DNA from: Dickeya dadantii NCPPB 898
GTDB taxonomy: Bacteria > Pseudomonadota > Gammaproteobacteria > Enterobacterales > Enterobacteriaceae
DNA: 32,000 bases
Direction: 5' to 3'
NCBI RefSeq assembly: GCF_000406145.1
Contig: NZ_CM001976.1
Coordinates: 837,260-869,259 of the forward strand
The notes below the pieces were generated by a model that saw nothing but the letters and a program-made list of their open reading frames with translations, ran no database searches and was not told the origin of the DNA. The position numbers and the translations under genes are program-made. Each line of letters starts with the position of its first letter. Position 1 is the first letter of the stretch. This document shows positions 1,605-22,805 of this stretch, piece by piece.

Positions 1605-4046
1605 TTAACCCCGAGAATTATCGATAGCGCGTTTGACATTTTCAAAAGAAGGATCACCCATTTTTAGGGCTTCGTTCATGTCAAAATAGTTAGGTTTGTT
1701 TATGATTTTATTCCAAGTAGTGGATAAATAAATTTTAAAAGCATTGGCACGATTGTATCGATCTTCAATGTTAAATGATTCACATGATGTACGCATGCTA
1801 TTAACTATTTCAGGGTTAAATATAGGTGTATCGAAGAGCATTGCGTCAAGATAAGCGAAATCACTAATCCAACGTTTTAGATGATATTGTCCTATTGATG
1901 TTGTTCTAAATTTAGTTGGCATATCACCAATTAAGCCTGTTTCATCTTCTTCAAATGTGAAGCGTTGAGAGGTTTCAATGAGTTTTTTGTTTGTTGATTT
2001 TCTTAATGCATTTTCTGTTTGCTTAGGTATGAAACCTAAATTTTGCATTTCTTCAATTATTTTTCTTGTCTCGCAGAATCCATCTCGATCCTGTATTTCA
2101 CTTTTTTCAGATAAAAAAGATACGATCAATGGCACTAAAAAATGTTCTGACTCATCAGCAATAGAAATATCAAACATGTTCATCGCTAGAGAGGTATTGG
2201 GGTCGAAATGTGAAAAATCTCCTAACAATGCCTGTTTTGAGAATTCGTGTACTGGTATTTGATATCGTCCTTCCTTCTCATATGTGTGAATTATTTTTTC
2301 TGCTTCTACATTGGGGCTTCCAATAAATCCAGTAATGAAGCTTAACGCTTGCCGTACATTACCTCCTGTTATGTTTTCGATGAACTCACCAAGTGCTTTG
2401 TTTTTTCTTAACGAATCAAGAAGTACTTTTATAAATATTGAAAGATTATCTATATGTATTCTGACGAATTCAGCTTGTTCTAAAGGTATTTTACCTTCAG
2501 ACATTTCTAGAGCGAATTGAAGACGTTTATCAAGAACTTGGTCTATTCTTGGTGGGGATATAGTAAATACCTTGTGTGGATATGCAGTTAATGCACCAGA
2601 GGATTTTGATTTAAAAAAAGTTTGCGGCCGAACAGATATAAACACTAATGAATTCCATTCTTTTGCTAACTCTTGAGAGATGACGAATGCTCTTTGCTGG
2701 GTGTCAAAGTCACGTTGATCTGCATTATCTAAACAGATAATGATCTGTCTTTTATTTTGTTTTGATATATGACCTATTGAATTTTTTAGATGTTCATCCT
2801 TGTTGTTGATTTTGTTTTCGAGCATTTCAGTTTGTTTTTCTTCATATTTCTCTCTGTTTTTTTCTCGTAATCCTCCCCATATACCCGTTGAGAATCTCTG
2901 AATTTCTCTTGAATATACACCTTTGACAAATTTAATTTCTGTAATGTCAGTTTTATATTTTTCTAATAACTGGTTTTCAATCTCGTTGAGAATGAATATT
3001 TTAAGATTTTCAGCTAAAGTTGCGTTTGCCCCTAAATCAATATATAAATATATTGCTTCATTGAATTCTTTATATGCACTTGAATAAATCAGGTTTTTTA
3101 CGAAGGATGTTTTACCAACGCCAACGTCGCCTATCAAAACAATGGGGCGTTTTGATAACGCTTCAGCCATTATGCTTGGATCAAGTCCCTGTTCTTTACG
3201 ATCTGGTTTTACTGATGTGATTTGAGGTGATGATTCGCTATCGCTAAATAAAGCTGCATACCGTGCTTGCAGCATTTCTTTACTTAATAATGCATACTTA
3301 GAAAGTGCACCACTTTCGCAATAACACTTTTGATAGAACACATCTTCAATCTCTTTACTTTCAAGTACATCTTGGATTATTAATTCGGATATTTGACGAA
3401 GAGAGGTTTGTAAGTCGCTTGCATATCTAACTTTTGGATATGTGGCTAGATACGATGATAATTTATTCGGAATTCCTCTTGTATCAGATGTGAGATATTT
3501 CATTAATTTCTGTTCTTTTATCCCATAATATGAAATCATATTCCATACGAGAGTAAAATTAATCAGCATGCTTTCTAAACTTTCAAAGACTAAGGCTTTT
3601 CCTTCTAGGGGGGAACAACCATTTTGATTGCTTGCAATGAATGAAATATACTGATGTCCGTTGGTAGCTATAGCAATTGGAGTGCCTCTGGATGAACAAT
3701 AATTTTGAACCTGCCGTATTGCATCGCCTAAGTCTTCATTTGATTTTAATAAGGTTGAAATGTCTATTGTGTTTTTTGTTGACAGTCCAGCAGGTATTTC
3801 AAATGCCCTGCCTTCTCTCTTTGCCTCAACAATAACCTGCCTCGGATTTCCTAATTCATAATCTGTAAATGTTTTTTCCTCATAGCTTTCTACTTCAACT
3901 TGATCCTCTGGCCATGCGAGTACATTGGTTATTATCTTATTTATAATATGGTGCCTCGTTTGAGCTTCATTTCTAATTTTATCACTATCATTATAGACAG
4001 CGACCAGTTCTTTCAATGCACTCTCACATTCAGCCATATTATTCAT
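1605..4046 (-). CDS. PD-(D/E)xK (HsdR-N/Mrr-like) nuclease domain fused to a P-loop NTPase; candidate single-gene antiphage protein
   Basis: An 813-aa ORF with AGGA 7 nt upstream of the ATG. The N-terminus reads NEAQTRHHI...DYELG...VIVEAKREG...ATNGHQY, an HsdR N-terminal-like nuclease pattern. The middle has Walker A LIGDVGVGKTSF and Walker B-like IIICLDNADQ. It is AT-rich (a sampled line is about 33% GC) compared with its neighbours. Confidence 0.85.
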   Translation of the reverse strand: MNNMAECESALKELVAVYNDSDKIRNEAQTRHHIINKIITNVLAWPEDQVEVESYEEKTFTDYELGNPRQVIVEAKREGRAFEIPAGLSTKNTIDISTLLKSNEDLGDAIRQVQNYCSSRGTPIAIATNGHQYISFIASNQNGCSPLEGKALVFESLESMLINFTLVWNMISYYGIKEQKLMKYLTSDTRGIPNKLSSYLATYPKVRYASDLQTSLRQISELIIQDVLESKEIEDVFYQKCYCESGALSKYALLSKEMLQARYAALFSDSESSPQITSVKPDRKEQGLDPSIMAEALSKRPIVLIGDVGVGKTSFVKNLIYSSAYKEFNEAIYLYIDLGANATLAENLKIFILNEIENQLLEKYKTDITEIKFVKGVYSREIQRFSTGIWGGLREKNREKYEEKQTEMLENKINNKDEHLKNSIGHISKQNKRQIIICLDNADQRDFDTQQRAFVISQELAKEWNSLVFISVRPQTFFKSKSSGALTAYPHKVFTISPPRIDQVLDKRLQFALEMSEGKIPLEQAEFVRIHIDNLSIFIKVLLDSLRKNKALGEFIENITGGNVRQALSFITGFIGSPNVEAEKIIHTYEKEGRYQIPVHEFSKQALLGDFSHFDPNTSLAMNMFDISIADESEHFLVPLIVSFLSEKSEIQDRDGFCETRKIIEEMQNLGFIPKQTENALRKSTNKKLIETSQRFTFEEDETGLIGDMPTKFRTTSIGQYHLKRWISDFAYLDAMLFDTPIFNPEIVNSMRTSCESFNIEDRYNRANAFKIYLSTTWNKIINKPNYFDMNEALKMGDPSFENVKRAIDNSRG

Positions 4047-4071: not shown

Positions 4072-5271
4072 TCATTTATTTTGGCGATTATCAACAAAAA
4101 ATCCCCACCATTCCATCAGTTCTATACGCTGTTCAAAGTAAGTAGAGCGGTTATAAGCTCGTCTAACCTCATTCTTATCACAATGCGCTAACGCCGCTTC
4201 AATCACATCAGGATTAAAACCGGTTTCATTCATGGCGGTGCTGGCTATTGAGCGTAAACCATGAGCAACCAGTTTTCCACCGTAGCCGATGCGTTTTAGT
4301 GCTGCGTTGGCGGTCTGGCTGTTCATCGGCTTTTTAGGATCGTTACGGCTGGGGAAAACATACTCCCGGTTGCCGCTTATAGGGCGCATGATGTCGAGCA
4401 GTTCCAGCGCCTGTTCGCTGAGCGGCACAATATGATCGCGCTTGGCTTTCATTCTTTCAGCCGGAATGCTCCACGTTTTTTTCTCGATATCGATCTCAGC
4501 CCATGCTGTGGCGGAGGCTTCAGCCGGGCGGATAAGTGTCAATAATTGCCATTCCAGCAAGCAGCGGGTAGGAATGGAGAGGTTAGACATCGCAATGGTG
4601 CGCATCAGCGCGGGTAGCTCTTCTGGCCGAATGGTCGGCATATGCTGTTTTTTGGGGCGTTCAAAGGCCATACCAATGCCGGAGGCGGGGTTAGCATCAA
4701 TCAGCCCGGTGTTAACCGCGTAAACCATAATTTCGTTGATGCGTTGTACTAACCGCCTGACGGTTTCCAGTGCGCCACGGGCTTTAATCGGCTCCAGCGC
4801 CTGTATCAGTGTGCGGGCTTTGATTTGTTGCACGGGGATATTTTCAATCGCCGGGAGCACGTCTTTTTCCAGTGACCGCCAAATGTCTTTGGCGTGATCC
4901 GCACTGACTTTGGTCTGCTTCAACGTGAACCAATTACGTGCCACATTGATGAAGATGCTTTCTACCGCTATTTGCGCTTCTTCGACTTCCTTAGCCACTT
5001 TTTCCTGTGGGTCTATTCCTTTGGCTAACAAGGACAGTTTTTCGTCTCTCATGGCGCGGGCATCGGCTAATGACAATGCCGGGTAAGCGCCAAAACCAAT
5101 CATGGTACGTTGGCCTGTGGTTGGTTTCTGGTAACGGAACCGCCACAGTTTTTTCCCGGTGATTTTGACTAAGAGAAATAACCCGTTGCCGTCATGCAGC
5201 GTCAGGTCTTTGTCTGCCGCTTTGGCTTTTTGCACTTCGGTATGGGTGAGGGGGCGGGTTGTCCGTGCCAT
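4072..5271 (-). CDS. int: P4-type (CP4-57/IntA-like) tyrosine integrase
   Basis: The N-terminus MARTTRPLTHTEVQKAKAADKDLTLHDGNGLFLLVKITGKKLWRFRYQKP is typical of P4-family integrases. The C-terminal catalytic region reads HGLRS...LAHCDKNEVRRAYNRS. The start was chosen at ATG 5271 (AAGGA upstream), not at the ORF-track start 5400. It lies next to the tmRNA 3' repeat on the same strand. Confidence 0.9.
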   Translation of the reverse strand: MARTTRPLTHTEVQKAKAADKDLTLHDGNGLFLLVKITGKKLWRFRYQKPTTGQRTMIGFGAYPALSLADARAMRDEKLSLLAKGIDPQEKVAKEVEEAQIAVESIFINVARNWFTLKQTKVSADHAKDIWRSLEKDVLPAIENIPVQQIKARTLIQALEPIKARGALETVRRLVQRINEIMVYAVNTGLIDANPASGIGMAFERPKKQHMPTIRPEELPALMRTIAMSNLSIPTRCLLEWQLLTLIRPAEASATAWAEIDIEKKTWSIPAERMKAKRDHIVPLSEQALELLDIMRPISGNREYVFPSRNDPKKPMNSQTANAALKRIGYGGKLVAHGLRSIASTAMNETGFNPDVIEAALAHCDKNEVRRAYNRSTYFEQRIELMEWWGFFVDNRQNK

Positions 5272-5385
5272 TGGGAGATATCCTTGATGATTGGTATACG
5301 CCTTTTGGTATATATCGTACCGTATACCAATACGTATACCAATAATCAGCGGATTTAGCCGGATATCGTCGGACAATGACGGAAA

Positions 5386-5420
5386 CAAAAAAGCCCGCAA
5401 ACCTAGGTGGGATGCGGGCT
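5386..5420 (-). terminator. Rho-independent terminator downstream of the tmRNA 3' fragment
   Basis: An 8-bp stem: AGCCCGCA (5392-5399) pairs with TGCGGGCT (5413-5420). On the minus strand it is followed by a T-run (plus-strand AAAAAA, 5386-5391). Confidence 0.6.
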
Positions 5421-5629: not shown

Positions 5630-6805
5630 TCATTGTATGTTGAATTCGCGCCCCGCATTCCCGTCATAATCGGACAGGTAAGAACCGTAGTGACGAAAGA
5701 GCATTTCGGGTCCTTTGTGGCCCATTTGTGCGGCTAGCCAGAACAGGTTGGCACCTCGGCTGATGTGCCGGGTGGCAAAGGTGTGGCGGGTCTGATAGGG
5801 ATTGCGGTAGCGTATTCCGGCTTTTTGGAGCGTGGGAACCCAGGCTTTCTTCCTGATGGCATCTGCGCCTGCCCACGGTGCGCCGGTTTTCGGATCGTCA
5901 AACACGAATTTGCTACGCATAAGCGTGAACGGTTTTTGCTCCTCAAGAGCGGTTAACGCTTCCGTGTCCAGATCGACACTACGGCGGCCAGCCTTGGTTT
6001 TGGTTTCTTTGATAACGCCAACAACGCGGGCAGATTTGACGTTAACGCGTTTTCCGGTGAAATCAATATCTTCCCAGCGTAGCGCACAGAGTTCAGAGCT
6101 GCGCATACCGGTATGAAAGGCAAATCGAAACAGGTTTTCCCACTGCTTGTTGCCTGCGGCGATATAGATGGCCGTTGCTTCTGCTGGGGAAAACGGGTCG
6201 ACCTCATAATGACGGCCGCTATTCAACGGCCTGCTTGTCTGGTATCTGGCCGCGCTGACCAATTTTACCGGGTTAACCTCGATCAGCCCATCTGTGACGG
6301 CTTCATCAAGCGCACTACGCAGAAATGAGAGGCGATTCCTGGTGGTTTTCAGGGTTGTTTTTTGCTGACTGATCCAGTTTTTGAGGATTGCTGGGGTCAG
6401 GCTTGTTACTGGCAGCTTATGCAGTGCAGACAGCACTGAACGGCACTTTTTATACCCCACAAGGGTGGACGGTGAAAGATTCCGGTTTTTACAGATCGTC
6501 AGATACTCATCCAGATAGTCAATAACAGCCCGGCGACGGGTGATGGAGCCAAAAATCTTTAGCTTTCTGGAGTGAGGGAAATAATCGATGTAAGCAAAGC
6601 TCTCAGCCGCGATTTTATTCTGGATCTCGCCCAGTAGTCGTTCGGCATATTTGATGGTTTTCGTGTTCACGTCCATCAATGACAAGGGCTCCCGGCACAG
6701 CAGCCCTTTATAGGTAAAGGTCATCACCAGTGTGGAGCCGGTTTTGTGCTGGCGAAGGGTTATACCTCTGGGAAGTGATAGGGATCTCTGTTCTTTCTGG
6801 CCCAT
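5630..6805 (-). CDS. int: Tyrosine integrase, lambda-like, with an N-terminal arm-binding-type domain
   Basis: A 391-aa ORF with GGAGG 7 nt upstream of the ATG. The C-terminal part contains HTGMRSSEL...YQTRHTFAT...MGHKGPEMLFRHYGSY (R..H-R-Y catalytic pattern). It is transcribed toward the att junction, as lambda int is. Confidence 0.9.
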   Translation of the reverse strand: MGQKEQRSLSLPRGITLRQHKTGSTLVMTFTYKGLLCREPLSLMDVNTKTIKYAERLLGEIQNKIAAESFAYIDYFPHSRKLKIFGSITRRRAVIDYLDEYLTICKNRNLSPSTLVGYKKCRSVLSALHKLPVTSLTPAILKNWISQQKTTLKTTRNRLSFLRSALDEAVTDGLIEVNPVKLVSAARYQTSRPLNSGRHYEVDPFSPAEATAIYIAAGNKQWENLFRFAFHTGMRSSELCALRWEDIDFTGKRVNVKSARVVGVIKETKTKAGRRSVDLDTEALTALEEQKPFTLMRSKFVFDDPKTGAPWAGADAIRKKAWVPTLQKAGIRYRNPYQTRHTFATRHISRGANLFWLAAQMGHKGPEMLFRHYGSYLSDYDGNAGREFNIQ

Positions 6806-6969: not shown

Positions 6970-7362
6970 CGATCGCCTCCGGTTGGTGCATTTGCGCTTG
7001 CCTGACGAGTCATACGTTTGGGCCCGCGGCAAGTCTTCACGGCTGCCATTCGTCATCCTTTCCTGCTCGTCTTCGAATAAGGCGACCGCAGAGGGGATCA
7101 TCATGCAAAAAAGCGCAGTTGAACAAAACCGGTCAGGGCGTATACCAGCGTAAGGAGGATAGGTAACGGTGAAGACGGAATGTCAGGGGGAGAATGAAGG
7201 CGGCCTTGCTGTCTCGCCCATCGTACCACGGCGTTCTCGCCGTCAAGGGCGGCGCGCGCGTTGCGCGCTGGCGGCAAAGCCGTCTGCGACCCTGTGACGG
7301 CGTGCGCTGCGCCGTGCTGCGTCGGCTCCGGGCAATGTCGCCCGAGCAACCGGAGTATTGTC

Positions 7363-7872
7363 ATGTCACAACCCACGTTCTCTTTGTTGACCGCGCCACT
7401 GCTGGTGCGGGATACACACGGGCTTTATCTGCCGGCGACGACTGAGCAAATCTTGCTGGCGGCACGTCAGGCCATAGACTGCAAAATGCCTTTAGGCACG
7501 GAGTTCACGTCAGCGAGCCAGACCCAGGCGTACCTGTGCGCCAAGCTGGCCGGGTTTGAGCGCGAAGTGTTCGCGGTGCTGTTTCTCACGACACGACACC
7601 GCCTCATTGAGTATGCCGAACTGTTTTACGGCACCCTTGCTACCACTGCGGTGTACCCGCGCGAAATCGTCAGAAAAGCGCTGAGCTGCAATGCCGCGGC
7701 GGTGATCCTGGCGCACAATCACCCGAGTGGAAATACGGAGCCGAGTCAGGCCGACCTGATGCTGACGCGCCGGGTCAGTGCGGCGCTGGCACTGGTGGAC
7801 GTGCGGGTTCTGGATCACATCATTGTGGGCGGTAATGACACGTTGTCATTTGCTGAACGGGCATTACTGTGA
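7363..7872 (+). CDS. radC: RadC-like JAB-domain protein
   Basis: Contains the JAMM motif AHNHPSG..EPSQAD and the C-terminus LDHIIVG. The start is at ATG 7363 with GGAG upstream, and a strong terminator follows. Confidence 0.85.
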   Translation: MSQPTFSLLTAPLLVRDTHGLYLPATTEQILLAARQAIDCKMPLGTEFTSASQTQAYLCAKLAGFEREVFAVLFLTTRHRLIEYAELFYGTLATTAVYPREIVRKALSCNAAAVILAHNHPSGNTEPSQADLMLTRRVSAALALVDVRVLDHIIVGGNDTLSFAERALL

Positions 7873-7898: not shown

Positions 7899-8467
7899 GC
7901 GGTGGCCTGCCCCTGACTGGATACCCCGTCATTCGGCGCAGCGCTGTGACTCGCCATGATGTGCTGCATCAGGTTGTGTGGCCGTGCATCGTCCCCGACA
8001 CTGGTGATCGACTGCCGTAAGGTCGTGAAGGCGGCGTGGCCGATATGCCGGCAGCCTGGCTACGACGTTGCGTTGCGTGATGACTTCTGCCGTTGCCCGG
8101 TGAGGTAAGGTGCTGTCGCCCGTCATGGGAACAGCGTGAGGCTGACACTGGCGTGGCGAATCGGTAACGCCGTTGTGTCGGTCAGGTGCGTTAGTCATGG
8201 TGCCTTTCGGGAGCGGTAGGGCCATACGTCCTTGTGTCGTTGTGAATCCTGACGGGTGGCACGGCTACGCCTCGGGCCTGATGGCCGCAACCAGCAAGCA
8301 CCAGCAATGTCCCCGGCGCCAGCGCCTTCCTCGCGCAGCAAATTCCTGGCGTTTGCTGGTCCTTCACGGTGTTACGGCCGCAGGTGCGGCCAGCCCGGTC
8401 CCCGTCTGTCGGCTCACAACAAGGACGCGATGGCGCGACCTTGATGAACCCGAAAGGAGAAATGATC

Positions 8468-8780
8468 ATGGCTAACATCGGCACCTTCACCGCCCAGACA
8501 AACGGTTTTACCGGCACGGTTCACACCCTGACCCTTAACGTCAAGGTGAAGTTTGTTCCCAATGACCGAAGCGGCGACAGCGTCCCACGATTACCGCATC
8601 CAGACGGCAGGCGGTTACGACATCGGCGCAGCGTGGAAAAAAATCAGCCAGGCCGAACGGCCTTACCTGTCGGTCACGCTCGATGACCCGTCCCTTCCGG
8701 CGACCATTTACGCCCGCCTGATCGAGGACGATGACGGCACCTATAACCTGATTTGGTCGCGCAGCAAAGCGACGGTTTAA
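8468..8780 (+). pseudogene. DUF736-family gene with a frameshift (or a sequencing error)
   Basis: The N-terminal half [37 protein letters not shown] is in one frame (AAGGAG upstream). The C-terminal half [60 protein letters not shown] is in another. The switch is near 8579-8585. Joined together they have typical DUF736 length and pattern. Confidence 0.7.
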
Positions 8781-8948
8781 CGAAAACACAGCACCCCGCC
8801 GAATGGCGGGGTAGCCACCGGTAGAGAATGGGCCACACCATCGGCTTTTCCGCTCAACGCCAAGCGGACATGGCAGACCCTGATCGGGTATTGCGGCATA
8901 TGTGGGATGTGCTGCGGTCGAGGATAGTGAAGGGAAAAGCCTGTCCGC

Positions 8949-9075
8949 GATTCTGTGTAATCAGACGGACGGTGGTTACGATGTAGATGCTGTGCGGAAA
9001 AAATCAGCTAGATCGAACCGTTCTATAATCTCGGTAACCCTCAATGAGCTATCTCTATTACGCCCATGAACATGC
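8949..9075 (+). pseudogene. Decayed fragment of a second DUF736 copy
   Basis: By eye this aligns with 8589-8730: shared blocks are CAGACGG, GGTTACGA, GGAAAAAAATCAGC, TCGGT, ATTACGCCC. It contains stop codons. It ends exactly where the AT-rich cargo begins. Confidence 0.5.
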
Positions 9076-9148
9076 TACCTACAGCCAATTAGCGAAATGC
9101 TGTTGCTTACCGTTGATTTATAAAGAGCCAACACAGCTAATTTAAAAA

Positions 9149-9784
9149 TTATTTTTCCATAAATAATCCATACGGATTTAGATAGCCTACATAGGTCGGT
9201 TTTTTTTTGTAATGAGTTGTATTGCAAGACCACCTTAAGGCGGAATAACCAGCCATAATTCGATGTCCAACCCATCTTTCATCGATCAATTTAAAACCGC
9301 TTGGTTTATTCAAAAGTAATAAACTGCCCATGAATTTTATCCATTCATGATTTTTTATTAACCTGTTTCCATAAGCATGGAAAGACCTACCGCTATTAAA
9401 AATGTAAAAGCTTAAATTCCAATGGGATGCTAAGTCTCTTAGTGGTGTGCTATCAATTATACCTCTATCAACATTACCAAAATCGATTAATGGAATGTGA
9501 TGTTCCGAGCCAAAGTCAAAAAGTTGTGAATGGAGTGCTAACTCTTCACCATGTTGTAAATTTGCTATCATATCTAATAAAGTTTGTTCGTTAAGTTGCC
9601 ATATCGGTAGGCTAAAAATATATCTCTCATCAGTAAAGCTTTGAGGTAAATAACGGTACTTACTAAATGTAAGAGAAATGCTACTAGACACGACACTATT
9701 CTTTATCTGGGTTTCTATAAGATTAGTCACCCATAATATTGGATGCCTACTAAAAAATGGATAATTTGTTAGTAATTCGTTCAT
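9149..9784 (-). CDS. Hypothetical protein, partner of the dGTPase; weak archaeo-eukaryotic primase (AEP)/PrimPol-like motif pattern
   Basis: A 211-aa ORF whose ATG lies 5 nt after the dGTPase stop. Motif-like strings are HIPLIDFGNVD, FNSGRSFHAYG and KLIDERW. It is AT-rich like the dGTPase gene. Confidence 0.75.
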   Translation of the reverse strand: MNELLTNYPFFSRHPILWVTNLIETQIKNSVVSSSISLTFSKYRYLPQSFTDERYIFSLPIWQLNEQTLLDMIANLQHGEELALHSQLFDFGSEHHIPLIDFGNVDRGIIDSTPLRDLASHWNLSFYIFNSGRSFHAYGNRLIKNHEWIKFMGSLLLLNKPSGFKLIDERWVGHRIMAGYSALRWSCNTTHYKKKPTYVGYLNPYGLFMEK

Positions 9785-9789
9785 TTTAT

Positions 9790-11298
9790 TTATACCTTTA
9801 TACCTTTAAGCATATGATACATTTCCATTGCAAATTGATCTGTCATGCCGGAAACAAAATCAACTATAAGGTGGACGCGAAGTTTCCATTCGATAGTACT
9901 ATCAATTGACTCTAATCTGTTTTTGATTTTTTCTTCAGAATAACCAGGGTCATTTAATGGCAAATCTAATAAAGATGTTTTATATGCATTGAGATGCTTA
10001 GAAGGAAGCCTGTTGAATAAGCGTCTTTGAATGTCTAAATTGTTTTTTCTGATTTTTTTGTTATCTTTTGTTAATAGGAGTGAAAAATCGTTTTTTGAAA
10101 GTGATAATAATTGTAAGTATTCATCCAATATCCCTTTTATTATAGAAAATCCTGATAACTCCATTCTTTCGGCTTCTTCAGAGGTGAATAAGTATTGAGA
10201 TGTATAATCTTTAAGGATTTTCAATAGATTGTATTCGAAATCTGATTCTGAAATTAATTCTTTATTATATTGTGATTTTATAAGGCTGTCATATTTTTCC
10301 ACAAAGCGAAGAGCAACTTGTTCTACGAGATAATTAGAGAGCTTTGTTTTAAAAGATAAAAAACTACCAATCGGTGAGTTCGGAGTAACAGATAAACTGT
10401 TAATTAATTCTTCGCATATTTTTTCTTGTTTGGGGATGGAATTTTTGAGATCTGAAAGTTTTTTGGTTGTAAATTCTTTGAAGTTTTCAAAAGAAATTAT
10501 TTTTTTCTCTATACCATCTTCAATGTCGCTTATGCAATAAGATATGTCATCTGAAGCCTCCATTAAAAAACCCAGAGGGTGTCTTGAATTAGGTGGCATG
10601 TCAAGGCTTTTCCAAGCTCCTTCTATTATATTCTTTTCGCTGCAGAAGTATCCGATTTTTTTACTAAATGGTTTTTCGGAATTAATGCTTTTAGGACAAA
10701 ATGTATACTTAAGGAAGGCAGCTAGTTGTGTATATGTTAAATTGAGTCCATAATATCCGTCCTCTCCCTGTAAGCGAGTTATAACTCTCAGACCCTGAGG
10801 GTTGCCGTCAAAATTATTTATATCACAAAGTAAATCATCAAATTCTTCATTATTTAATTCTTTATTTATTGATGTTTTAATTGATTTTTTTATTTCGTCA
10901 GATTTACTCCACTTTACTATTGCGGACTCACCAAAGTGACCAAAAGGTGGATTGCCAATATCATGCATTAAACATGCGGTTTCTACAATATTGGAAATTG
11001 TTAGGTTGTTTTTCATCCAGAGGTTTTTTATTGAACTATCGATTCTATCGGCTGCTAATATTTTTTCAAAAATAGAGGCTACTAAATAGCGGCCTATATG
11101 TGAAACTTCGATTGAGTGGGTCAAGCGAGAACGAACAGAAGAATTACTTTCTAATGAGAATACTTGAGCTTTCTGCTGTAATCGTCTAAAAGCTGCAGAA
11201 TATATTAACCTTGCTCGATCACTTTGAGTGGCTGCAAGAATTGATGAGTGATCTGCACTAGACTTTCTATATCTATCCGTTTTAATTAATTTATCCAT
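9790..11298 (-). CDS. dGTP triphosphohydrolase-family HD-domain protein (Dgt-like)
   Basis: A 502-aa ORF containing SDRARLIYSAAFRRLQQKAQVF, RSRLTHSIEVSHIGR and CLMHDIGNPPFGHFGE, the canonical dGTPase-family motifs. GGAG lies upstream of the ATG. Confidence 0.9.
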   Translation of the reverse strand: MDKLIKTDRYRKSSADHSSILAATQSDRARLIYSAAFRRLQQKAQVFSLESNSSVRSRLTHSIEVSHIGRYLVASIFEKILAADRIDSSIKNLWMKNNLTISNIVETACLMHDIGNPPFGHFGESAIVKWSKSDEIKKSIKTSINKELNNEEFDDLLCDINNFDGNPQGLRVITRLQGEDGYYGLNLTYTQLAAFLKYTFCPKSINSEKPFSKKIGYFCSEKNIIEGAWKSLDMPPNSRHPLGFLMEASDDISYCISDIEDGIEKKIISFENFKEFTTKKLSDLKNSIPKQEKICEELINSLSVTPNSPIGSFLSFKTKLSNYLVEQVALRFVEKYDSLIKSQYNKELISESDFEYNLLKILKDYTSQYLFTSEEAERMELSGFSIIKGILDEYLQLLSLSKNDFSLLLTKDNKKIRKNNLDIQRRLFNRLPSKHLNAYKTSLLDLPLNDPGYSEEKIKNRLESIDSTIEWKLRVHLIVDFVSGMTDQFAMEMYHMLKGIKV

Positions 11299-11327
11299 TT
11301 ATTATCTCCAGAGTTAATTTTGACTCA

Positions 11328-11356
11328 TTATTATTGATTCTGTTTTTTATGTGCAA
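11328..11356 (-). promoter_or_regulatory. Candidate sigma70 promoter of the dGTPase operon
   Basis: On the minus strand: TTGCAC (11351-11356), a 17-nt spacer, then TAATAA (11328-11333), about 30 nt upstream of the ATG. Confidence 0.3.
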
Positions 11357-11680
11357 TTATCTATTGTAGTCGAATAATTCTAACAGAAAAAGTTTTTTTT
11401 GCTACTGCATGATAGATATCTCGTTGGCCAAGTTAAACTCAAGTGGAGTTCTTCCTATAAAGACTGACTCTATGATTAATATCCAAAGTGAGATGATTAA
11501 ATAGCTGTGCGGAATAGTGCTCCACTTTCGGCCAGCTCTTGCAGGGTAAGGCGTTGGAGCTGTTTTCTCTGTCTGGCTGTTCTACATAAGGCCTCGGATG
11601 TGTTGCCCTTACGCAACATGCCACATGTCAGTAAACGGTAGGTGTAGCGGTATTAGCCGCAGCTATTTAGGCTGTGTCCC

Positions 11681-12050
11681 TTAACTTAACAGTCGCTTCA
11701 AAAATAACCGGACAACACCCAGTTTAAGTATACTCAAGTAGTTTCTGGCTGTTCTTTCCGGGCGGGTGGCAATACGGCGATGTTCGTTCAGCCAGGCCAA
11801 GGCTGGGCAAAACAGCGTTCAACGACGTTGCGCTTTTTATACCACCGGATATCGAGTTTTCGCCGTTTCTCCCGGCTGGATTTTTCATTCGACCTGAACG
11901 GAATAACGGTTTTTATTCCTTTTATTGTCAGCTTTAAATCACCTCCTCGAGAGGTGGTGATTGTTTTTAAGATAATAACGTGGCTACTGACTTCGCATTA
12001 CGACAACTTCGATCAGACTCACGGCGCTATCGATCTTAATCGGCATTCTG
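11681..12050 (-). pseudogene. IS5-family transposase 3' remnant, frameshifted
   Basis: Minus-strand translation gives GIKTVIPFRSNEKSSREKRRKLDIRWYKKRNVVERCFAQ. After a frame break it continues NEHRRIATRPERTARNYLSILKLGVVRLFL and then stops (11681-11683). This matches the YKxRNxVERxF...RRIATRY pattern of IS5-family transposases. Confidence 0.55.
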
Positions 12051-12241: not shown

Positions 12242-13039
12242 ATGACGCCTCATCCCTCCGGGCATTGCCGCCCTATTGCCGCTTACCTTTACGTTTTACA
12301 TCTTGATGGCCCCGCGCTGGCCTGGGAATACCTGCGCCGAAATCCGGATTACCGCTGTGACTGGCTCCACCGCCCGCGTCGGGCCGGTGGAGCCCAACGC
12401 TGGGGCCTACGCCTGTGGGAAGATCCGTCCCTGGATGCGCGTGAGGCGCATCCCGTCTGGTATCCCGACCCTGACAGCGTTGTGCTGCTTTACCCGGATG
12501 CCGACCCACCGCCCGATGCCCCAGTTTTCGCCTTCTGGCACATGCCGGGTCGTCATACGCTGGTGCATGATGGCCGACGTTTACTGCTGTTGACGCGCTG
12601 GCCCGGCGGTTGCCTGCGGCTGGTGTGTGTACCGATGCCGGCTGATGGCATGGCGTATGTCTGTGCCGTCAGGGGCGGTGTGTTGCTGCGTTCCCGTTAC
12701 CGGCCATTAGCGGCCGCGTTGAGTCACGGGGCGGAAAGGCGCAATGCAGTACCGGATAGGATGGTTTGTCCCCGGCCTTCCCCCACCGCATTGCGGGAGT
12801 TACATACCCTGCAGGCGCTGGATGCGTCGCTGGCTGGTGCTTCCTTGCGTGACGTGGCGGCCGGTTTAATGGGCGCGGAGGGCCTTGCTGACGCCTGGCA
12901 CGCGGATAGCGGCCTCCGCTCCCGAGTCCGGCGGCTGGTCTCTCGCGGCAAGCGGCTGATGTGGGGCGGGTATCGCTGTCTTGTTTCCCCGTCCGTGGCT
13001 GGGAAGGGCCGTTCTGTTTCCGGCGCAAAACGGCCCTGA
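12242..13039 (+). CDS. DUF6499/DUF2285-type ICE transfer activator (FseA-like), single fused ORF
   Basis: A 265-aa ORF with AGGAGAA upstream. The N-terminal motif LAWEYLRRNPDYRCDW is the pattern I associate with this family. It sits immediately upstream of the excisionase-HTH and repA, as in Tn4371/ICEMlSym-type cores. Confidence 0.55.
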   Translation: MTPHPSGHCRPIAAYLYVLHLDGPALAWEYLRRNPDYRCDWLHRPRRAGGAQRWGLRLWEDPSLDAREAHPVWYPDPDSVVLLYPDADPPPDAPVFAFWHMPGRHTLVHDGRRLLLLTRWPGGCLRLVCVPMPADGMAYVCAVRGGVLLRSRYRPLAAALSHGAERRNAVPDRMVCPRPSPTALRELHTLQALDASLAGASLRDVAAGLMGAEGLADAWHADSGLRSRVRRLVSRGKRLMWGGYRCLVSPSVAGKGRSVSGAKRP

Positions 13040-17290: not shown

Positions 17291-17620
17291 TTACTGCGGC
17301 GTAATCAACAGCGTCGAGTTGGGGTTGTTTTTCTTGTACCGGTGGTACTGCAAAATCAGTGTTGCCAAATCGTCATCCACGGCATAGAAATAAGCTTCAG
17401 GTACATCCAACACTGCTGCGAACCGGCAAACCAGTTTGAAGTCGGGCGCATGGGTTTCCTTCTCATACTGACTGACTCGCGCACCTGCCGACTCTTCATC
17501 AATCCCGGCCTGTCTTCCTAGCTCTGCCTGGGTTAACCCCACATTGACCCTTGCCAGCCTCAAGCGTTTACCAATCACCGTGTTACCTTGTCTGTTTATC
17601 AAACGATGATTGATTATCAC
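17291..17620 (-). CDS. XRE-family HTH repressor, paralog A
   Basis: Contains IGKRLRLARVNVGLTQAELGRQAGI...VSQYEKETHAPDF. It aligns along its length with the ORF at 22022-22360. GTG start. Confidence 0.75.
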   Translation of the reverse strand: MIINHRLINRQGNTVIGKRLRLARVNVGLTQAELGRQAGIDEESAGARVSQYEKETHAPDFKLVCRFAAVLDVPEAYFYAVDDDLATLILQYHRYKKNNPNSTLLITPQ

Positions 17621-17654
17621 GGTATCGTGGCTACGCTTCTTGAAAAAATCCTTT

Positions 17655-17680
17655 AAAAATAAAAGTAATACTTTATTTTT
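17655..17680. promoter_or_regulatory. Operator-like AT palindrome (copy A)
   Basis: AAAAATAAAAGTAATACTTTATTTTT with the perfect core AAAGTA-A-TACTTT. It is near-identical to the palindrome at 22402-22426. Confidence 0.5.
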
Positions 17681-17941
17681 GTACTTTTTTTGGTCTTAAA
17701 TAAAGTAATTCTTAGTGATAAAAAGGATTACTAATGATGACCGCGTTTATGTGGAGAGTGTCGGTTTGGCTGAGACCTAGCCGATTTTTGAGCGGAATTA
17801 TGAAATTGCTGTGCGACGCGCCCTTGCTGGTGAAGAGCATAATGCAGAGATTCATAAAGCCCTCCCTAGGCAACCAGCACCACGGCCAGTAGACTCAGAA
17901 GTAGCCAAGCAGCACATAGAGCGATTGAAAAGGATGCTGAA

Positions 17942-17960
17942 GGGCGGTAAATGACCGCCC
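17942..17960. terminator. Hairpin between convergent reading frames (bidirectional terminator candidate)
   Basis: GGGCGG (17942-17947) pairs with CCGCCC (17955-17960), flanked by A/T runs. It lies 9 nt from the methyltransferase stop. Confidence 0.5.
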
Positions 17961-17968
17961 TTTATTAG

Positions 17969-19270
17969 CTAGGCGATGTGATTTCTCTGTCTTGTTTTTT
18001 CTTGTATTTCAATGATTTGAAAGCTAAAATTACTATATTTTTCACTGACCAATTGGAGTCTTTTCTCTGTAATGTCTGAGATTTTATTAAAACCCATTTT
18101 TCTAGCTAGATGTTTGACTGGAATTTCACAATCAGATTCCATCAGAATGCATTTTCTTTTCCCTCTGTCAGTTTCATTCAGTTCCGCAACTGCGTGAGCG
18201 GTCGTTCCTGAACCAGCAAAAAAGTCGAGGATAAGTGCATTATCAGATGAGCAAACATCAATTATTTTTTTTATGTAAGAAAGTGGCTTAGGCGTATCAA
18301 ACACCTTCCCGCCGAATAGCTTATTAATTTCATTTGTAGCTCTCTCTGTGTAGAAGTCGGTCTCACTCCAAAGAGAGCGAACTTTCGTTCTTTTTTCCTT
18401 TGCAGCATCGCCAGAGTAGTTTTTGACGTAAATAACCCCATTTTTACTAGCGTAAAGCTGCCAAGCTCTTTCTCTCGCTGTGTCGGCTCCCCAAAGCCAG
18501 CGTCTGTCTATACCTTTTGAATCTACTGGATAGGTGATCTTCCAATTATCAATAGGATCAACGGAAACCTCCCCACTTTCAGGATTATAATAGAGTGGGT
18601 AGAACATATTTGGTCTATCTGATTTTAGGCTAGCTTCACCCTTCTTGCGGAAAAGTCCATCGATGCGATATCCACCAAATTTATCTTGCTTATCGTAGCT
18701 TGTTTCATCAGCCTGACCGCGAAGAAAAGCTTTATCCGATTTCCCATAAATCATCAAATACTCATGGTTAGATGCAAGATTCTTTTTGCTCCCTTTACCA
18801 TTTTTCGATCTGCATACGATTACATTACCAATGAAGTTTTCCTCTCCAAAGATGCAATCCATAAGTATCTTAAGGTAGGCGCATTCATAGTCATCAATAC
18901 TAATAGCTATAACGCCTGAATCCTTTAGTATCTCTCTAGCTGCAACTAGACGAGACAGCATAAACGTCATCCAACTCGAGTGAGTACCAAAATGCCCACT
19001 AGAATCAGACTTTCTAGAATCATTGTATAGAAATTTCGAGCCTGTATTGTACGGGGGATCAATGTAACAAAAGTCCACAATCCCAGGGCTGCGTAACGCA
19101 ATTTCTTTAAGGTATGGTAAGTTGTCGCCAACAAAGAGGGTTGTGTCAGCTTCGCGCCGTTCTTGTACAGCATCACAGACTTCCCTCTCACTAAGAGGCA
19201 GATAATGTTGGGGCTCAAACCCAAGCTCTCTCTCTAACTTGCTGATTTTTATATCCATTATTGATAACAT
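17969..19270 (-). CDS. Beta-class N6-adenine/N4-cytosine DNA methyltransferase
   Basis: A 433-aa ORF. Motif IV (IDPPYNTG) is N-terminal and motif I (LDFFAGSGTTAHA) is C-terminal, the beta-class order. GAGGG lies upstream of the ATG. Confidence 0.85.
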   Translation of the reverse strand: MLSIMDIKISKLERELGFEPQHYLPLSEREVCDAVQERREADTTLFVGDNLPYLKEIALRSPGIVDFCYIDPPYNTGSKFLYNDSRKSDSSGHFGTHSSWMTFMLSRLVAAREILKDSGVIAISIDDYECAYLKILMDCIFGEENFIGNVIVCRSKNGKGSKKNLASNHEYLMIYGKSDKAFLRGQADETSYDKQDKFGGYRIDGLFRKKGEASLKSDRPNMFYPLYYNPESGEVSVDPIDNWKITYPVDSKGIDRRWLWGADTARERAWQLYASKNGVIYVKNYSGDAAKEKRTKVRSLWSETDFYTERATNEINKLFGGKVFDTPKPLSYIKKIIDVCSSDNALILDFFAGSGTTAHAVAELNETDRGKRKCILMESDCEIPVKHLARKMGFNKISDITEKRLQLVSEKYSNFSFQIIEIQEKTRQRNHIA

Positions 19271-19336
19271 ATCAAACCCTCTCTATTCGAGGTATTATAA
19301 CAAGATTTGATTCTAATTTTAACAGAAGGATAAGGG

Positions 19337-20959
19337 ATGCGGCTTCGTACTAAAAATCTTGAAACTTCGGAGCAGCTAGCGGAGTTTGATCAATGGCTTA
19401 CTGCGAAGCTCGAGAGAATCAAAGATAGTGAAAAATTCAACACTGAAATAAACTCACTCTGTGAGTGTATTCATTCTATATCATGTTACCTTGATAACTT
19501 TTCTAGCTATCAATCGTGTAATATTGAAAGTTTGTGTGAGGCAGTAATAAGTGCCAGCGACGAACTAATAATTGGCGATTCATTTGTTGATGATGAGCAA
19601 AATGTTGCTAATTTTTATGAGGCATTTTTTAATCTGCTATTTTTGACGTCTGGTGCTACAGATAACAACCTTAAGAATCACTTTCTTATAAAGCTAAAGG
19701 AAGATGACATAAAACCTCTTATACCAAAAAGAGGCTCATCACAAAAAAACATAAGATTCCGCTTGAATGTAATTCCACCAATGACAAAATCTGATTTTAT
19801 TGCAAAATCATTAGCTTCATGTTTTGTGGGGTCTCATAGGTGTTATGTTTCCTATGTTAAAACAGAACCTGTTTTTGATCTAAGGCTATACCTAAAAGTA
19901 TTGCTGAAGGAATATACAAGTTTAATTTTGGAAGATAACGAAGAAACGATGCAGTTTTGGGCTGTTTGTCGTTCATTCATGGATTTAGATAGACTTTCAA
20001 ATGACTTGCCACTTGGTAAATATTTACTCAATTCCTGTACGATCTTCAAGGTAAGAGGGAGCGTATCAGCTTCTGGTGGTCACATAACAGAAGATATCCT
20101 TCGGGAAAAACTAGCTGGAATGGGTCTTCGGCCTCACTCTGACTTCAATGTAAATGATGTGACTATAGGTGAGGAGGAAATTGTTGAAGATGGAAAAAGG
20201 AAAAAAAAGACACGGGCATATGATTTTATTCTTCCCTATAAAATAGATGGCTGGGAACCTAAGCCTAAACTATTTATTCAATCACAGTTTTATGCGGGTG
20301 ATTCTGGAAGCGTTTCTCATAAAGTTGTAGACCAAACACAAAGCTCTAGAAAATTTACTTTGGAGAAATATCCATCCGCAAGATTTGTGGAGTATCTTGA
20401 TGGTGCAGGTTACTACGCATCATTACGTGGCGACCTTGCTCATATGTTGTCATTTGAAGATACAGCCTCTTTTTTTCAAGTGAAAAGCATTTTAGTGAGG
20501 CTGCGACGGGAGTTACAAAATATTGCGTTTCTAACTCCTATTGAGTTTGAGCACGCAATTATAATGAGCGACGATGCTTCAAAGGAGTCTGTTTTTCGTG
20601 CACTAAAAGAAGATGGTTATCCGGTCGAAGAAATAAATCGAATTGCGTCTGTATGTAATGACCTTGGTTATGTTTTAGAGAATGGAGATAGGTTAGAAAT
20701 AGCTCCTAGTCGAATAGATATAGCCAGAAGACTATTGATTTTGGATGTCACTGCTAATAATTCATACAAAATAAATGATGTTCAGAGAGCGAGCTTAAAA
20801 TACCTGCTTGTACCTGGTTATGGTGCAAATCAAGCTATACTTGAGTCAGAATTGTCTCATCTTGTTTGTTCTATATGCAAGCAGTGTTTAATTACTGCAC
20901 CAGTATTCGCTGATGACATTGAATGGCTGTTAGATGAGGGAGTTTTTAAGCGGCGATAA
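19337..20959 (+). CDS. Hypothetical 540-aa protein divergent from the methyltransferase; candidate restriction endonuclease
   Basis: Shares a 66-bp divergent intergenic region with the MTase and has the same AT-rich composition. A possible degenerate PD-(D/E)xK-like stretch is RAYDFILPY...KLFIQSQFYAGDSGSVSHK. No helicase or NTPase motifs were seen. Confidence 0.7.
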   Translation: MRLRTKNLETSEQLAEFDQWLTAKLERIKDSEKFNTEINSLCECIHSISCYLDNFSSYQSCNIESLCEAVISASDELIIGDSFVDDEQNVANFYEAFFNLLFLTSGATDNNLKNHFLIKLKEDDIKPLIPKRGSSQKNIRFRLNVIPPMTKSDFIAKSLASCFVGSHRCYVSYVKTEPVFDLRLYLKVLLKEYTSLILEDNEETMQFWAVCRSFMDLDRLSNDLPLGKYLLNSCTIFKVRGSVSASGGHITEDILREKLAGMGLRPHSDFNVNDVTIGEEEIVEDGKRKKKTRAYDFILPYKIDGWEPKPKLFIQSQFYAGDSGSVSHKVVDQTQSSRKFTLEKYPSARFVEYLDGAGYYASLRGDLAHMLSFEDTASFFQVKSILVRLRRELQNIAFLTPIEFEHAIIMSDDASKESVFRALKEDGYPVEEINRIASVCNDLGYVLENGDRLEIAPSRIDIARRLLILDVTANNSYKINDVQRASLKYLLVPGYGANQAILESELSHLVCSICKQCLITAPVFADDIEWLLDEGVFKRR

Positions 20960-21164
20960 ATATTATTAGGGAGTTGTTTGAGGCTAAGTTGTATTAGTGT
21001 GATTACCAAAGGATACTGACGGAATAATTACCGGACGATTTTGTCGTTATCACACTATCAACGCCCTTCGATTCAGGCAAAGTCTTTTGCGGTGTTAGAT
21101 AGCGATTCCACTTTGACTAACCTAAGGGCGAGAGTGTGAACTAATTGTTAAGTTGAAGTCAGTG

Positions 21165-21625
21165 CAGCCAGTCGCACATCCAGAATTTTTTCCAGATATG
21201 AACTGCTCATGCCCGCAAATTGCTGCTTCTTCCGTAAGCTTGCTTTTCAGCTAGTTTCCGCTCGCAATATGTTCTGCGCGGTGTCCCGTAACTATTTTTT
21301 GTACAGTTCAGCATTGCTATAACTGTGCAAAAAAACGCTTTTAAGCGATAAAGAATGACCAAAAGAGACGGATATTTAACCAAAAATAAAATCTCGGAAA
21401 TGATTCTTGCAGCACTTTTTAGCGTATAGGGAGGTTAAGGGACAGACCCTAATATCGGAGGGGCACCTCGATATATCTGGCAGGCATCATCATTCATCAC
21501 AACATACAGAATCCAGTGCAGGCTATTTTCAATCGCCCAATGCCCCCAGATTGCTCTGGCGTTAGCTCTGTCGAACTGATGTAGTAGCGATACTCCATCG
21601 GAATTTTTTCCATTTTTTCAAAACT
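21165..21625 (-). pseudogene. ISAs1-family (H-repeat-type) transposase C-terminal remnants, frameshifted
   Basis: Minus-strand translations give [11 protein letters not shown]. After a frame break they give [32 protein letters not shown]. Further downstream there is NILRAETS*KASLRKKQQFAGMSSSYLEKIL. These match the HWxIENxLHWxLDV...DD pattern. Confidence 0.55.
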
Positions 21626-21639
21626 GTTTCCCCCGCCCG

Positions 21640-21945
21640 GCGACATCATGCATCGACTATCTCATCCAACCCGCCGCGCAGGCGTTCTTCCGCTCGGTTA
21701 GGTATCAGTACTGGGGTGTCCCTTAGAGGATGCGCGTGAATGGGTAGAGCGTTTTATCGGGTGGTCAACGGCACCGAGGTGAAGATCGTGCGCTGCTGAA
21801 AAATCGGGAAGAGGTGTATCAAAAAACAAAAGCGCAACACTCAGAACGCTGGTCAGGCAGGACAAGGAAATGGTAGCCGACAGACGAGGTCATGCTGAAT
21901 CCAGAACGGAAAAAAACAGACAGTCTAAATCAACTGGGGCGCTAA
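21640..21945 (+). pseudogene. IS3-family transposase (OrfB) C-terminal remnant, frameshifted/deleted
   Basis: Translated pieces are AQAFFRSVRYQYWGV, SLEDAREWVERFIGW and GEDRALLKNREEVYQKTKAQHSERWSGRTRKW...EVMLNPER. They lie in different frames with stop codons. Confidence 0.5.
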
Positions 21946-22021
21946 CTATCTTGACACTTACCGATACCGAGCAACAGTATTTTAGGTAATGCTCAGGGGG
22001 CGGAATTAGTAAAGAGGCTGC

Positions 22022-22360
22022 TTACTGCCCATGTTCCAGCCAGAAAGCTGCACCAAACACCGCATCAGGATGTACTTTTTTATGATAATGATATTGCAGG
22101 ATAATTAGTGCCAACTCTTCATCTCTTGCATAGAAGTAAGCTTCGGGGACATCGAGAACCGCAGCAAACTGACAGACCAGACCAAAGTCTGGCTCATTGA
22201 CTTCCCTTTCATACTGGCTGATACGCGAACTGGCGGTTTCTTCATCCAGACCGGCCCGACATCCAAGCTCAAGCTGCGTTAAGCCTGCGTTGACTCTGGC
22301 CAGTTTCAGTCGTTTCCCGATCACGGCGATATCCCAATCATCTAAATGGCATGATGGCAT
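22022..22360 (-). CDS. XRE-family HTH repressor, paralog B
   Basis: Contains IGKRLKLARVNAGLTQLELGCRAGL...ISQYEREVNEPDF...AAVLDVPEAYFYA. It is divergent from a Ner-like gene across an operator region. Confidence 0.8.
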   Translation of the reverse strand: MPSCHLDDWDIAVIGKRLKLARVNAGLTQLELGCRAGLDEETASSRISQYEREVNEPDFGLVCQFAAVLDVPEAYFYARDEELALIILQYHYHKKVHPDAVFGAAFWLEHGQ

Positions 22361-22401
22361 TATCTCTGCCGCTAACGGTTCTTTCTTAAAGATTATTTTT
22401 C

Positions 22402-22426
22402 AAAAATAAAGTTAAACTTTATTTTT
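22402..22426. promoter_or_regulatory. Perfect 25-bp palindromic operator candidate (copy B)
   Basis: AAAAATAAAGTT-A-AACTTTATTTTT, with 12+1+12 perfect symmetry, between the divergent XRE and Ner-like genes. Confidence 0.55.
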
Positions 22427-22499
22427 GGTTGATATCTAATCTTAAAATAAACTATCCTTTATTATGGAAAGTAACTCTTTATCTTGAGAGGTGCAGTGA

Positions 22500-22805
22500 A
22501 TGAGCTCTATTCAAAGGCATGGCTTGGCTGACTGGCATTCTGCCGACATTATTGCCGGGCTTCACAAACGGGGAACCACAATGGCTGCTGTGTCGCGGGC
22601 GGCGGGGCTGAATTCCTCCACACTGGGTAATGCGCTTAATCGTCCGTGGCCTAAAGGGGAGCAACTGATTGCTGATGCACTGGGGGTGCCACCCTATGAG
22701 ATTTGGCCGAGCCGTTATTTTGACGAACAGGGGCGGCTAATCCCACGCGTTCCCCGCTCTCGGCTCCGGTCTGAACAGGAAGAAACCCCCGCGCCCGATA
22801 GTTAG
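22500..22805 (+). CDS. Ner/Nlp (SfsB)-like DNA-binding regulator
   Basis: DWHSADIIAGLHKRGTTMAAVSRAAGLNSSTLGNALNRPWPKGEQLIADALGVPPYEIWPSRY closely parallels E. coli Nlp and phage Mu Ner as I recall them. Confidence 0.85.
   Translation: MSSIQRHGLADWHSADIIAGLHKRGTTMAAVSRAAGLNSSTLGNALNRPWPKGEQLIADALGVPPYEIWPSRYFDEQGRLIPRVPRSRLRSEQEETPAPDS

Follow-up and report, generated by a model that had tools for sequence, protein, structure and literature searches.

Immunity by nucleotide depletion is known from bacterial dGTPases and from human SAMHD1. Among the bacterial enzymes, the stand-alone anti-phage dGTPase (NF041026 / PRK05318), of which SpdGTPase of Shewanella putrefaciens is an example, was reportedly described by Tal et al. 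in 2022; it is a single gene with a product of about 430-460 amino acids (aa). Clover, reported in a 2025 preprint, is a two-gene system in which CloA is a dGTPase activated by dTTP, and CloB is a nucleotidyltransferase of the Pol-beta superfamily with a product, p3diT (pppdTpdT), that restrains CloA; mutants in the active site of CloB are toxic (PMC12265719). For E. coli Dgt, the dGTPase of the optA1 / T7 Gp1.2 system, overexpression can restrict T7, and single-stranded DNA binds and stimulates the enzyme, blunting the T7 inhibitor Gp1.2 (PMC9478638). Here we analyze a stretch of 32,000 nucleotides (nt) of Dickeya dadantii NCPPB 898 (contig NZ_CM001976.1, positions 837,260 to 869,259), which we call the window, and in it a cassette of two genes on the minus strand. 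The upstream gene (9790..11298, 502 aa), taken from the list of open reading frames (ORFs), encodes a Dgt-type dGTP triphosphohydrolase, the putative effector. The downstream gene (9149..9784, 211 aa) encodes a protein resembling archaeo-eukaryotic primases (AEPs), labelled "primase 1D-like" by the family PF24387; it is a putative regulator or nucleotidyltransferase, and we refer to it as the partner.

The two genes almost certainly form one functional unit. In a survey anchored on the AEP-like gene, with one genome per species for 185,579 species, we found 96 relatives of the partner and examined 80 loci. A dGTPase gene lies directly upstream on the same strand in 74 of these 80 loci, and the commonest spacing between the two genes across species is a 4-nt overlap. 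The six exceptions are two loci in which the contig ends before any upstream DNA and four true orphans, which are distant members of the family. These orphans (L053, L076, L078 and L080, from Bacteriovoracia, Saccharibacteria and unclassified metagenome-assembled genomes) have no dGTPase within 6 kb; genes for DTW, for DUF4238 with a SEC-C motif, and for radical SAM proteins are among their neighbors. In the reverse survey, with the dGTPase as anchor in 80 metagenome loci, 27 loci have the partner, 48 do not, and five lack downstream DNA; all seven loci with a dGTPase at least 42% identical to that of the window carry the partner. A neighbor-joining tree of 143 dGTPases groups 83 of the 90 partner-linked sequences in one clade, with just two solitary ones among them, and places E. 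coli K-12 Dgt within a wholly solitary clade of 35 tips; we take this split as indicative and not as proven, because of the short deep branches, none of which carries a support value. The pairwise distances of dGTPases and partners are correlated (r = 0.77, Mantel p = 0.001), and the mean pairwise identities of the two proteins are 0.40 for the dGTPase and 0.38 for the partner. The tight coupling of the two genes, noticed in an earlier note from the letters of the window, is conserved across the 74 linked loci and agrees with the correlated distances. The same note had named two outcomes within the reach of computation that would speak against it: lack of a conserved linkage, and a partner that belongs to a well-known unrelated family. 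We find the linkage conserved, and we find no such family for the partner.

At the junction of the two genes in the window, the stop codon TAA of the dGTPase (9790-9792) and the ATG of the partner (9782-9784) are separated by a spacer of 5 nt. Both the ORF list and the sequence agree with the previously noticed compact AT-rich operon with its 5-nt gap, and the cassette has a GC content of 32.4%, compared to 60-62% in the flanks. The junction includes a tandem repeat of an 8-nt unit, (AAGGTATA)x2 (9791..9806, minus strand), which contains the dGTPase stop codon and after which the partner ATG follows. The number of copies differs among near-identical cassettes: two in the window, five in Dickeya CP162670 (L165 9953-9992), where the spacer is 29 nt, and nine in D. 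chrysanthemi Ech1591 (L164 9923-9994), where it is 61 nt. The dGTPase protein is unaltered in all of them, and the repeat could tune the expression of the partner. A scan for promoters and terminators gave counts no better than those of shuffled sequence. In four or five of the loci anchored on the AEP-like gene (L008, L028, L045, L058, and L003), the dGTPase is split or frameshifted and the AEP-like ORF is intact. Broken genes of this kind would fit the dGTPase being the costly component of the pair; assembly errors are another possible cause.

Judged by its conserved residues, the upstream protein is a catalytically intact Dgt-type enzyme. It scores above the cutoffs of two NCBIfam models, NF003429 "dGTPase" (466.8 bits, cutoff 405) and TIGR01353 (315 bits, cutoff 152), and it matches the PADLOC dGTPase model with an E-value of 5e-70. 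It scores below the cutoff of NF003701 (176 bits, cutoff 383). Neither the metal ligands (H61, H112-D113 and D250) nor the dyad H121/E124 vary in an alignment of 29 sequences, among them 27 partner-linked homologues as well as E. coli Dgt, so that the dGTPase and HD hallmarks recognized earlier hold both by profile and by residue. Of the proteins with a solved structure, E. coli Dgt (4x9e, 249 bits, 34% identity) matches the sequence best, with CloA (9p8t) at 179 bits. Only three positions, G184, F316 and T318, appear as signatures of the partner-linked dGTPases, all of them weak, and because of this we propose no interaction interface.

The partner has a single Pfam match, to PF24387 "AEP-like / archaeo-eukaryotic primase 1D-like" (E-value 3.2e-39), and no match in PADLOC, NCBIfam or PHROGs; an exact copy of its sequence is not on record. 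Its family is large, with about 1,600 clusters at 50% identity for E-values up to 1e-3, about 1,000 for E-values up to 1e-10, and 286 for E-values up to 1e-30. An AlphaFold2 model that takes 36 homologues as input has pLDDT 88 and pTM 0.84. The top Foldseek matches of this model in the PDB are the LigD polymerase domain (2r9l, probability 0.91), the Pyrococcus abyssi PriS (9f28), and human PRIM1 (8d0b); in BFVD, a library of predicted viral structures, the best matches are phage and plasmid primases with probabilities up to 1.0. Primases are thus the top fold matches in two independent libraries, which, together with the Pfam match, agrees with the earlier suggestion of a PrimPol-like protein. 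We consider the assignment of a predicted AEP fold reasonable, for a family that is very divergent. The equivalences between individual AEP motifs and residues of the partner are inferential, because no sequence or profile links the family to characterized AEPs.

Among 221 distinct members of the partner family, eleven positions are invariant (S86, D101, H136, Y138, D168, R170, W171, H174, L183, R184 and P196), and six more are almost invariant (E81, S131, G132, R133, S134 and R175), with E or D at position 81 in 217 of the 221. The order and spacing of D101, S131-G-R-S-x-H136 and D168 resemble those of AEP motifs I-III. In the AlphaFold2 model, S131-G132-R133-S134-x-H136 sits at a strand-loop-strand, and D168 at the boundary between a strand and a helix. 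The translated 211-aa ORF contains all three peptides in which the resemblance had been noticed, HIPLIDFGNVD, FNSGRSFHAYG and KLIDERW. The first motif had been called degenerate, and so it is in the whole family: position 103 is Gly, Ser or Ala, its three commonest residues, in 169 of the 221 sequences, and an acidic residue is not among these. Canonical two-metal catalysis by the partner is uncertain since motif I comes without its second acidic residue, and E81 might stand in for the lost one. With nine polar or aromatic residues invariant and a mean identity similar to that of the dGTPase, the partner is under strong constraint. The invariant acidic, His, Arg and Ser residues would favor an active site that binds nucleotides. 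The proteins are small (about 190-230 aa), with no helicase, zinc-binding or PriCT domain. Some partners (L081 1028-2068 = P0092; P0088) have a C-terminal Mrr_cat domain, of the PD-(D/E)xK nuclease type, and still have the dGTPase upstream; in Ralstonia, a separate gene with Mrr_cat and a Zn-ribbon is found just upstream of the pair (L172 5442-6401). Such a neighbor or fusion is only occasional, and it hints that the partner may act on or near DNA.

Of the systems described so far, Clover is the one that the cassette most resembles in layout. In both, a gene for an HD-domain dGTPase comes first and a small accessory gene (about 200-260 aa) follows directly downstream with tight spacing, and both occur in defense islands or contexts. 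The spacing of the HD motif and the H/E dyad is also the same, with H112-D113, H121 and E124 here, and H117-D118, H126 and E129 in CloA (PMC12265719). The accessory proteins differ: CloB has the GG..RD..DxD motif of the Pol-beta fold, whereas the partner belongs to the AEP-like PF24387. The dGTPases differ as well, and by sequence the enzyme of the window is nearer to the hexameric E. coli Dgt than to the octameric CloA. With a CloA query of 373 aa, rebuilt from a PDB alignment, we find a CloA homologue (51% identical) on a Phaeobacter plasmid, and 8 nt downstream of it a gene for a 259-aa protein with a GG..RD..DVD Pol-beta signature and a weak PolyA_pol match. We compared the partner to this CloB-type protein with hhalign and reject the two being the same family (probability 0.07). 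No locus in either of the two surveys has a CloB-like gene.

The stand-alone anti-phage dGTPase is also an HD-domain dGTP triphosphohydrolase found in defense contexts, and the PADLOC dGTPase model matches the enzyme of the window. The latter is longer (about 500 aa) and has a partner in 74 of 80 loci, and we place it in another clade because it scores 194 bits with NF041026, for which the cutoff is 400. E. coli Dgt is the closest solved structure and passes the same NCBIfam equivalog NF003429, and its gene, part of the core genome, stands alone between mtn and degP, unlike the partner-linked dGTPase described here. The partner shares with AEP and PrimPol proteins (the LigD polymerase domain, PriS, PRIM1, and plasmid and phage primases) the Pfam label, the top folds and the order of the motifs. 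It differs from them, CRISPR-associated Prim-Pol included, in having neither the second acid of motif I nor a zinc-binding, helicase or PriCT domain, and its genomic companion is a dGTPase and not a replication, repair or CRISPR gene. PADLOC 2.0 has no model for the partner. In full-text searches of the literature, we find no paper in which an AEP or primase-like protein is paired with a dGTPase; a survey from 2026 on the architectures of dGTPases reports domain fusions and mentions neither a primase nor an operon partner (PMC13519002), and dGTPases are absent from a 2018 survey of the families of AEPs (PMC5862659). The cassette is probably an undescribed relative of Clover, with a partner of another fold and a dGTPase of another lineage. 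The earlier note assumed that defense by dGTPases is the work of a single gene, a premise that Clover, a dGTPase plus a nucleotidyltransferase, has made outdated (PMC12265719). Its suggestion of an undescribed two-component variant stands in part: the partner family is unlike CloB and we find no paper on the pairing, but this is not the first two-component dGTPase system, since Clover has already been described.

The cassette is a horizontally mobile, self-contained unit of two genes. Its GC content is below that of the flanks in 58 of 58 loci, with a mean difference of 11.6 points. We clustered 571 neighboring ORFs from the 80 loci and find no third conserved gene (the largest cluster is present in 7 of the 80), and no conserved Ku, ligase or helicase beside the cassette. 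The direct neighbors include defense genes (type I and II restriction-modification, RmrA, MADS, Mokosh, BrxL and DruA), as well as dCTP deaminase, reverse transcriptase, NERD, RhuM, SymE, integrases and transposases; in some islands toxin genes are also near. Qualitatively, the contexts of the pair are thus mobile and rich in defense genes. The distribution is patchy, with hosts from more than a hundred bacterial species, in the Proteobacteria and beyond. We considered and rejected an origin of the cassette in phages or plasmids: it is present in 0 of 50,697 phage records and in 1 of 72,556 plasmid records, the one being a megaplasmid. A blastn search of 5,426 complete E. coli genomes finds no cassette.

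We propose, at about even chances, that the cassette is a nucleotide-depletion defense, against phages or mobile elements, in which a partner with a primase fold regulates the dGTPase. That the pair acts in defense through depletion of dGTP is, on its own, rather probable; that the partner acts enzymatically, with a regulatory nucleotide as its product, is possible, and we hold it with reserve. The model borrows by analogy the logic of Clover, where a dedicated partner controls a potentially toxic dGTPase. The first step of primer synthesis by primases yields a 5'-triphosphorylated dinucleotide. In the model, the dGTPase would be the effector, which converts dGTP into deoxyguanosine and triphosphate and so would starve the replication of invading DNA, and the partner, translationally coupled to it, would be its dedicated regulator. 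Using a conserved polar pocket (E81, D101, S131-G-R-S-x-H136 and D168-x-R-W-x-G-H-R), the partner would perform just the first priming step, possibly on phage or single-stranded DNA, and yield a small 5'-triphosphorylated di- or oligonucleotide; as an allosteric ligand of the dGTPase, this product would set the threshold of the enzyme's activity. As an alternative within the same model, the minimal AEP might present DNA to the dGTPase. We propose an enzymatic mode because of two precedents, the restraint of CloA by p3diT and the stimulation of E. coli Dgt by single-stranded DNA. The specific form of it, an AEP enzyme reduced to a signalling synthase whose released 5'-triphosphorylated di- or oligonucleotide is the allosteric switch of the dGTPase, is a reading that we put forward only tentatively. 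We infer the defense role, the physical or allosteric interaction, the catalysis by the partner, and the direction of the regulation (whether to restrain or to activate).

Several findings weigh against a defense system with a primase-fold regulator. The dGTPase passes the housekeeping Dgt model NF003429 and falls below the cutoff of the anti-phage dGTPase model NF041026. The partner matches known folds only weakly (TM-scores 0.35-0.46); searched as a profile against the sequences of the whole PDB, it has no match other than a spurious one to a halogenase, and hhalign against the primase of Clavibacter phage CMP1, one of the structural matches, gives nothing. For motifs II and III, we base the proposed equivalences only on the order and spacing of the residues and on the secondary structure of the model, and no DxD or other second motif I acid is found across the 221 sequences. 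The four distant orphans have no dGTPase nearby, the dGTPase tree is a neighbor-joining tree with very short, unsupported deep branches, several loci lie among ordinary housekeeping genes, and the richness of the neighborhoods in defense genes is a qualitative observation without a background control. The lack of the motif I residue, together with the existence of Mrr_cat fusions, makes a non-catalytic DNA sensor another possible role of the partner. The system would then still be a two-gene defense, with the partner a degenerate, non-enzymatic primase fold that has become a sensor or adaptor. On binding to phage DNA, to a replication intermediate or to a phage protein, it would turn the dGTPase on or off by direct contact; or else it would shield the dGTPase from phage inhibitors of the Gp1.2 type. 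The small size of the partner and its lack of helicase, zinc-binding and PriCT domains go with such a role, as does the engagement with DNA to which the Mrr_cat fusions and the neighboring Mrr_cat gene point; the overlap of stop and start suggests a near-stoichiometric co-production, as for a complex, and DNA-bound Dgt is not fully inhibited by Gp1.2 (PMC9478638). Yet the conserved set is rich in residues typical of nucleotide or metal sites (E81, D101, D168, H136, H174, R133, R170, R175 and the S-G-R-S loop), and in Clover, the one characterized analogue, the partner is an enzyme (PMC12265719). We consider a non-enzymatic partner rather doubtful.

The same housekeeping match of the dGTPase raises the question of a role outside defense, as an accessory module of DNA metabolism or repair in which the PrimPol-like partner would reprime or fill gaps, and the dGTPase would adjust the local dNTP pool or sanitize guanine nucleotides. 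In structure the partner matches best the polymerase domain of LigD, a repair enzyme, some loci have housekeeping flanks (which include twice the small subunit of ribonucleotide reductase), and in Ralstonia a gene for an ATP-dependent DNA ligase is about 6 kb from the pair. Such a module is improbable given a patchy distribution of about 96 matches in 185,579 species genomes, a composition that is always foreign, a placement in integrative and conjugative elements (ICEs) or small islands beside restriction-modification, BREX, Druantia and toxin genes, the lack of a conserved Ku, ligase or helicase neighbor, and linked dGTPases that are separate from the solitary housekeeping clade. A cassette that serves its own mobile element, with the AEP-like protein as a primase for conjugative or ICE replication and the dGTPase as a factor for exclusion of, or competition with, other elements, would account for the pair being cargo of an ICE near repA in the window and in two other Dickeya genomes, and many AEPs are primases of mobile elements, as are the viral and plasmid fold matches of the partner. 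We regard this as very improbable: no ICE can be recognized around most of the 80 loci, the pair travels as one unit from one unrelated context to another, it is found in one plasmid record and in no phage record, and the partner has no helicase or origin-binding domain. Both roles, in repair and in ICE replication, are less likely because of the patchy distribution, the foreign composition, the varied contexts, and the absence of a conserved Ku, ligase or helicase.

In the window, the cassette is carried by an element that, by its gene content in profile matches, is a Tn4371-like ICE. The AT-rich cargo segment with both genes (9070..11660) has a GC content of 0.28-0.35 compared to about 0.60 in the flanks, and it lies between DUF736 (8553-8780, Pfam match) and a RovC/DUF2285-like regulator (12242-13039). 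On the DUF736 side, the ICE region has two tyrosine integrases (4072-5400 and 5630-6805) and RadC (7261-7872); on the other side, beyond the RovC/DUF2285-like gene, there are HTH_17, RepA and S26 peptidase genes. The borders are as first described, a high-GC ICE core with debris of an insertion sequence on one side and a truncated DUF736 on the other. The translation of the truncated DUF736-like ORF (8902..9069, plus strand) is similar to the C-terminal portion of the DUF736 ORF found at 8553-8780. Upstream of the dGTPase, the remnant of an insertion sequence end (11668..11930) spans 263 nt and shares 74% identity with the end of an insertion sequence of the DDE_Tnp_1 kind in Dickeya CP162670, which makes the label of debris reasonable.

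The closest relatives of the window are two Dickeya ICEs, those of CP162670 and of D. chrysanthemi Ech1591, with a DNA identity of 97-99%, and both hold the two genes in the same slot; the ICE of CP162670 is 97.5% identical to the window across 12.3 kb. Ech1591 has acquired an IS110-family transposase (L164 6964-7986) a short way upstream of the dGTPase, with the insertion at 11660/11661 of the window, and this could affect the expression of the cassette there. The ICE DUF736 gene of the window is apparently frameshifted, with the N-terminal half in the ORF at 8369-8686 and the C-terminal half in the ORF at 8553-8780, and the Dickeya relatives have an intact 103-aa gene. The split gene could be a pseudogene or a sequencing error. 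The same ICE has a second AT-rich cargo island (17500-22500), with an N6/N4 DNA methyltransferase (17969-19270, minus strand; PADLOC MTase_III, 1e-80) and, adjoining it and divergently transcribed, a 540-aa ORF (19337-20959) with no Pfam or PADLOC match, which may be a restriction or other defense partner. A third AT-rich stretch, beside the integrase at 4072-5400, has an 813-aa ORF (1605-4046, minus strand) with only weak matches to AAA_22 and to mad8-like ATPases, and suggests another island integrated in tandem with the ICE.

The main question of nucleotide-depletion immunity is how a potentially self-toxic enzyme stays off until infection. In bacteria, Clover was the first to answer it, by means of a partner enzyme whose product is an inhibitory dinucleotide. 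The cassette looks like an independent solution, in which a dGTPase from the lineage of the classical, single-stranded DNA-responsive E. coli Dgt is joined to a minimal primase-like partner, in a compact two-gene system present in strains of Vibrio cholerae, Klebsiella, Yersinia and Dickeya. Should the partner be a sensor without catalysis, the cassette would show how a primase fold has found a new use in reading out the replication of phages. Should it be catalytic, signalling would be added to the chemistry known for the primase superfamily; and if it is a synthase of the signal, the AEP superfamily would have its first role in immune signalling, and the logic of Clover would have been invented a second time, convergently, with an unrelated catalytic fold and an unusual motif I of a single Asp.

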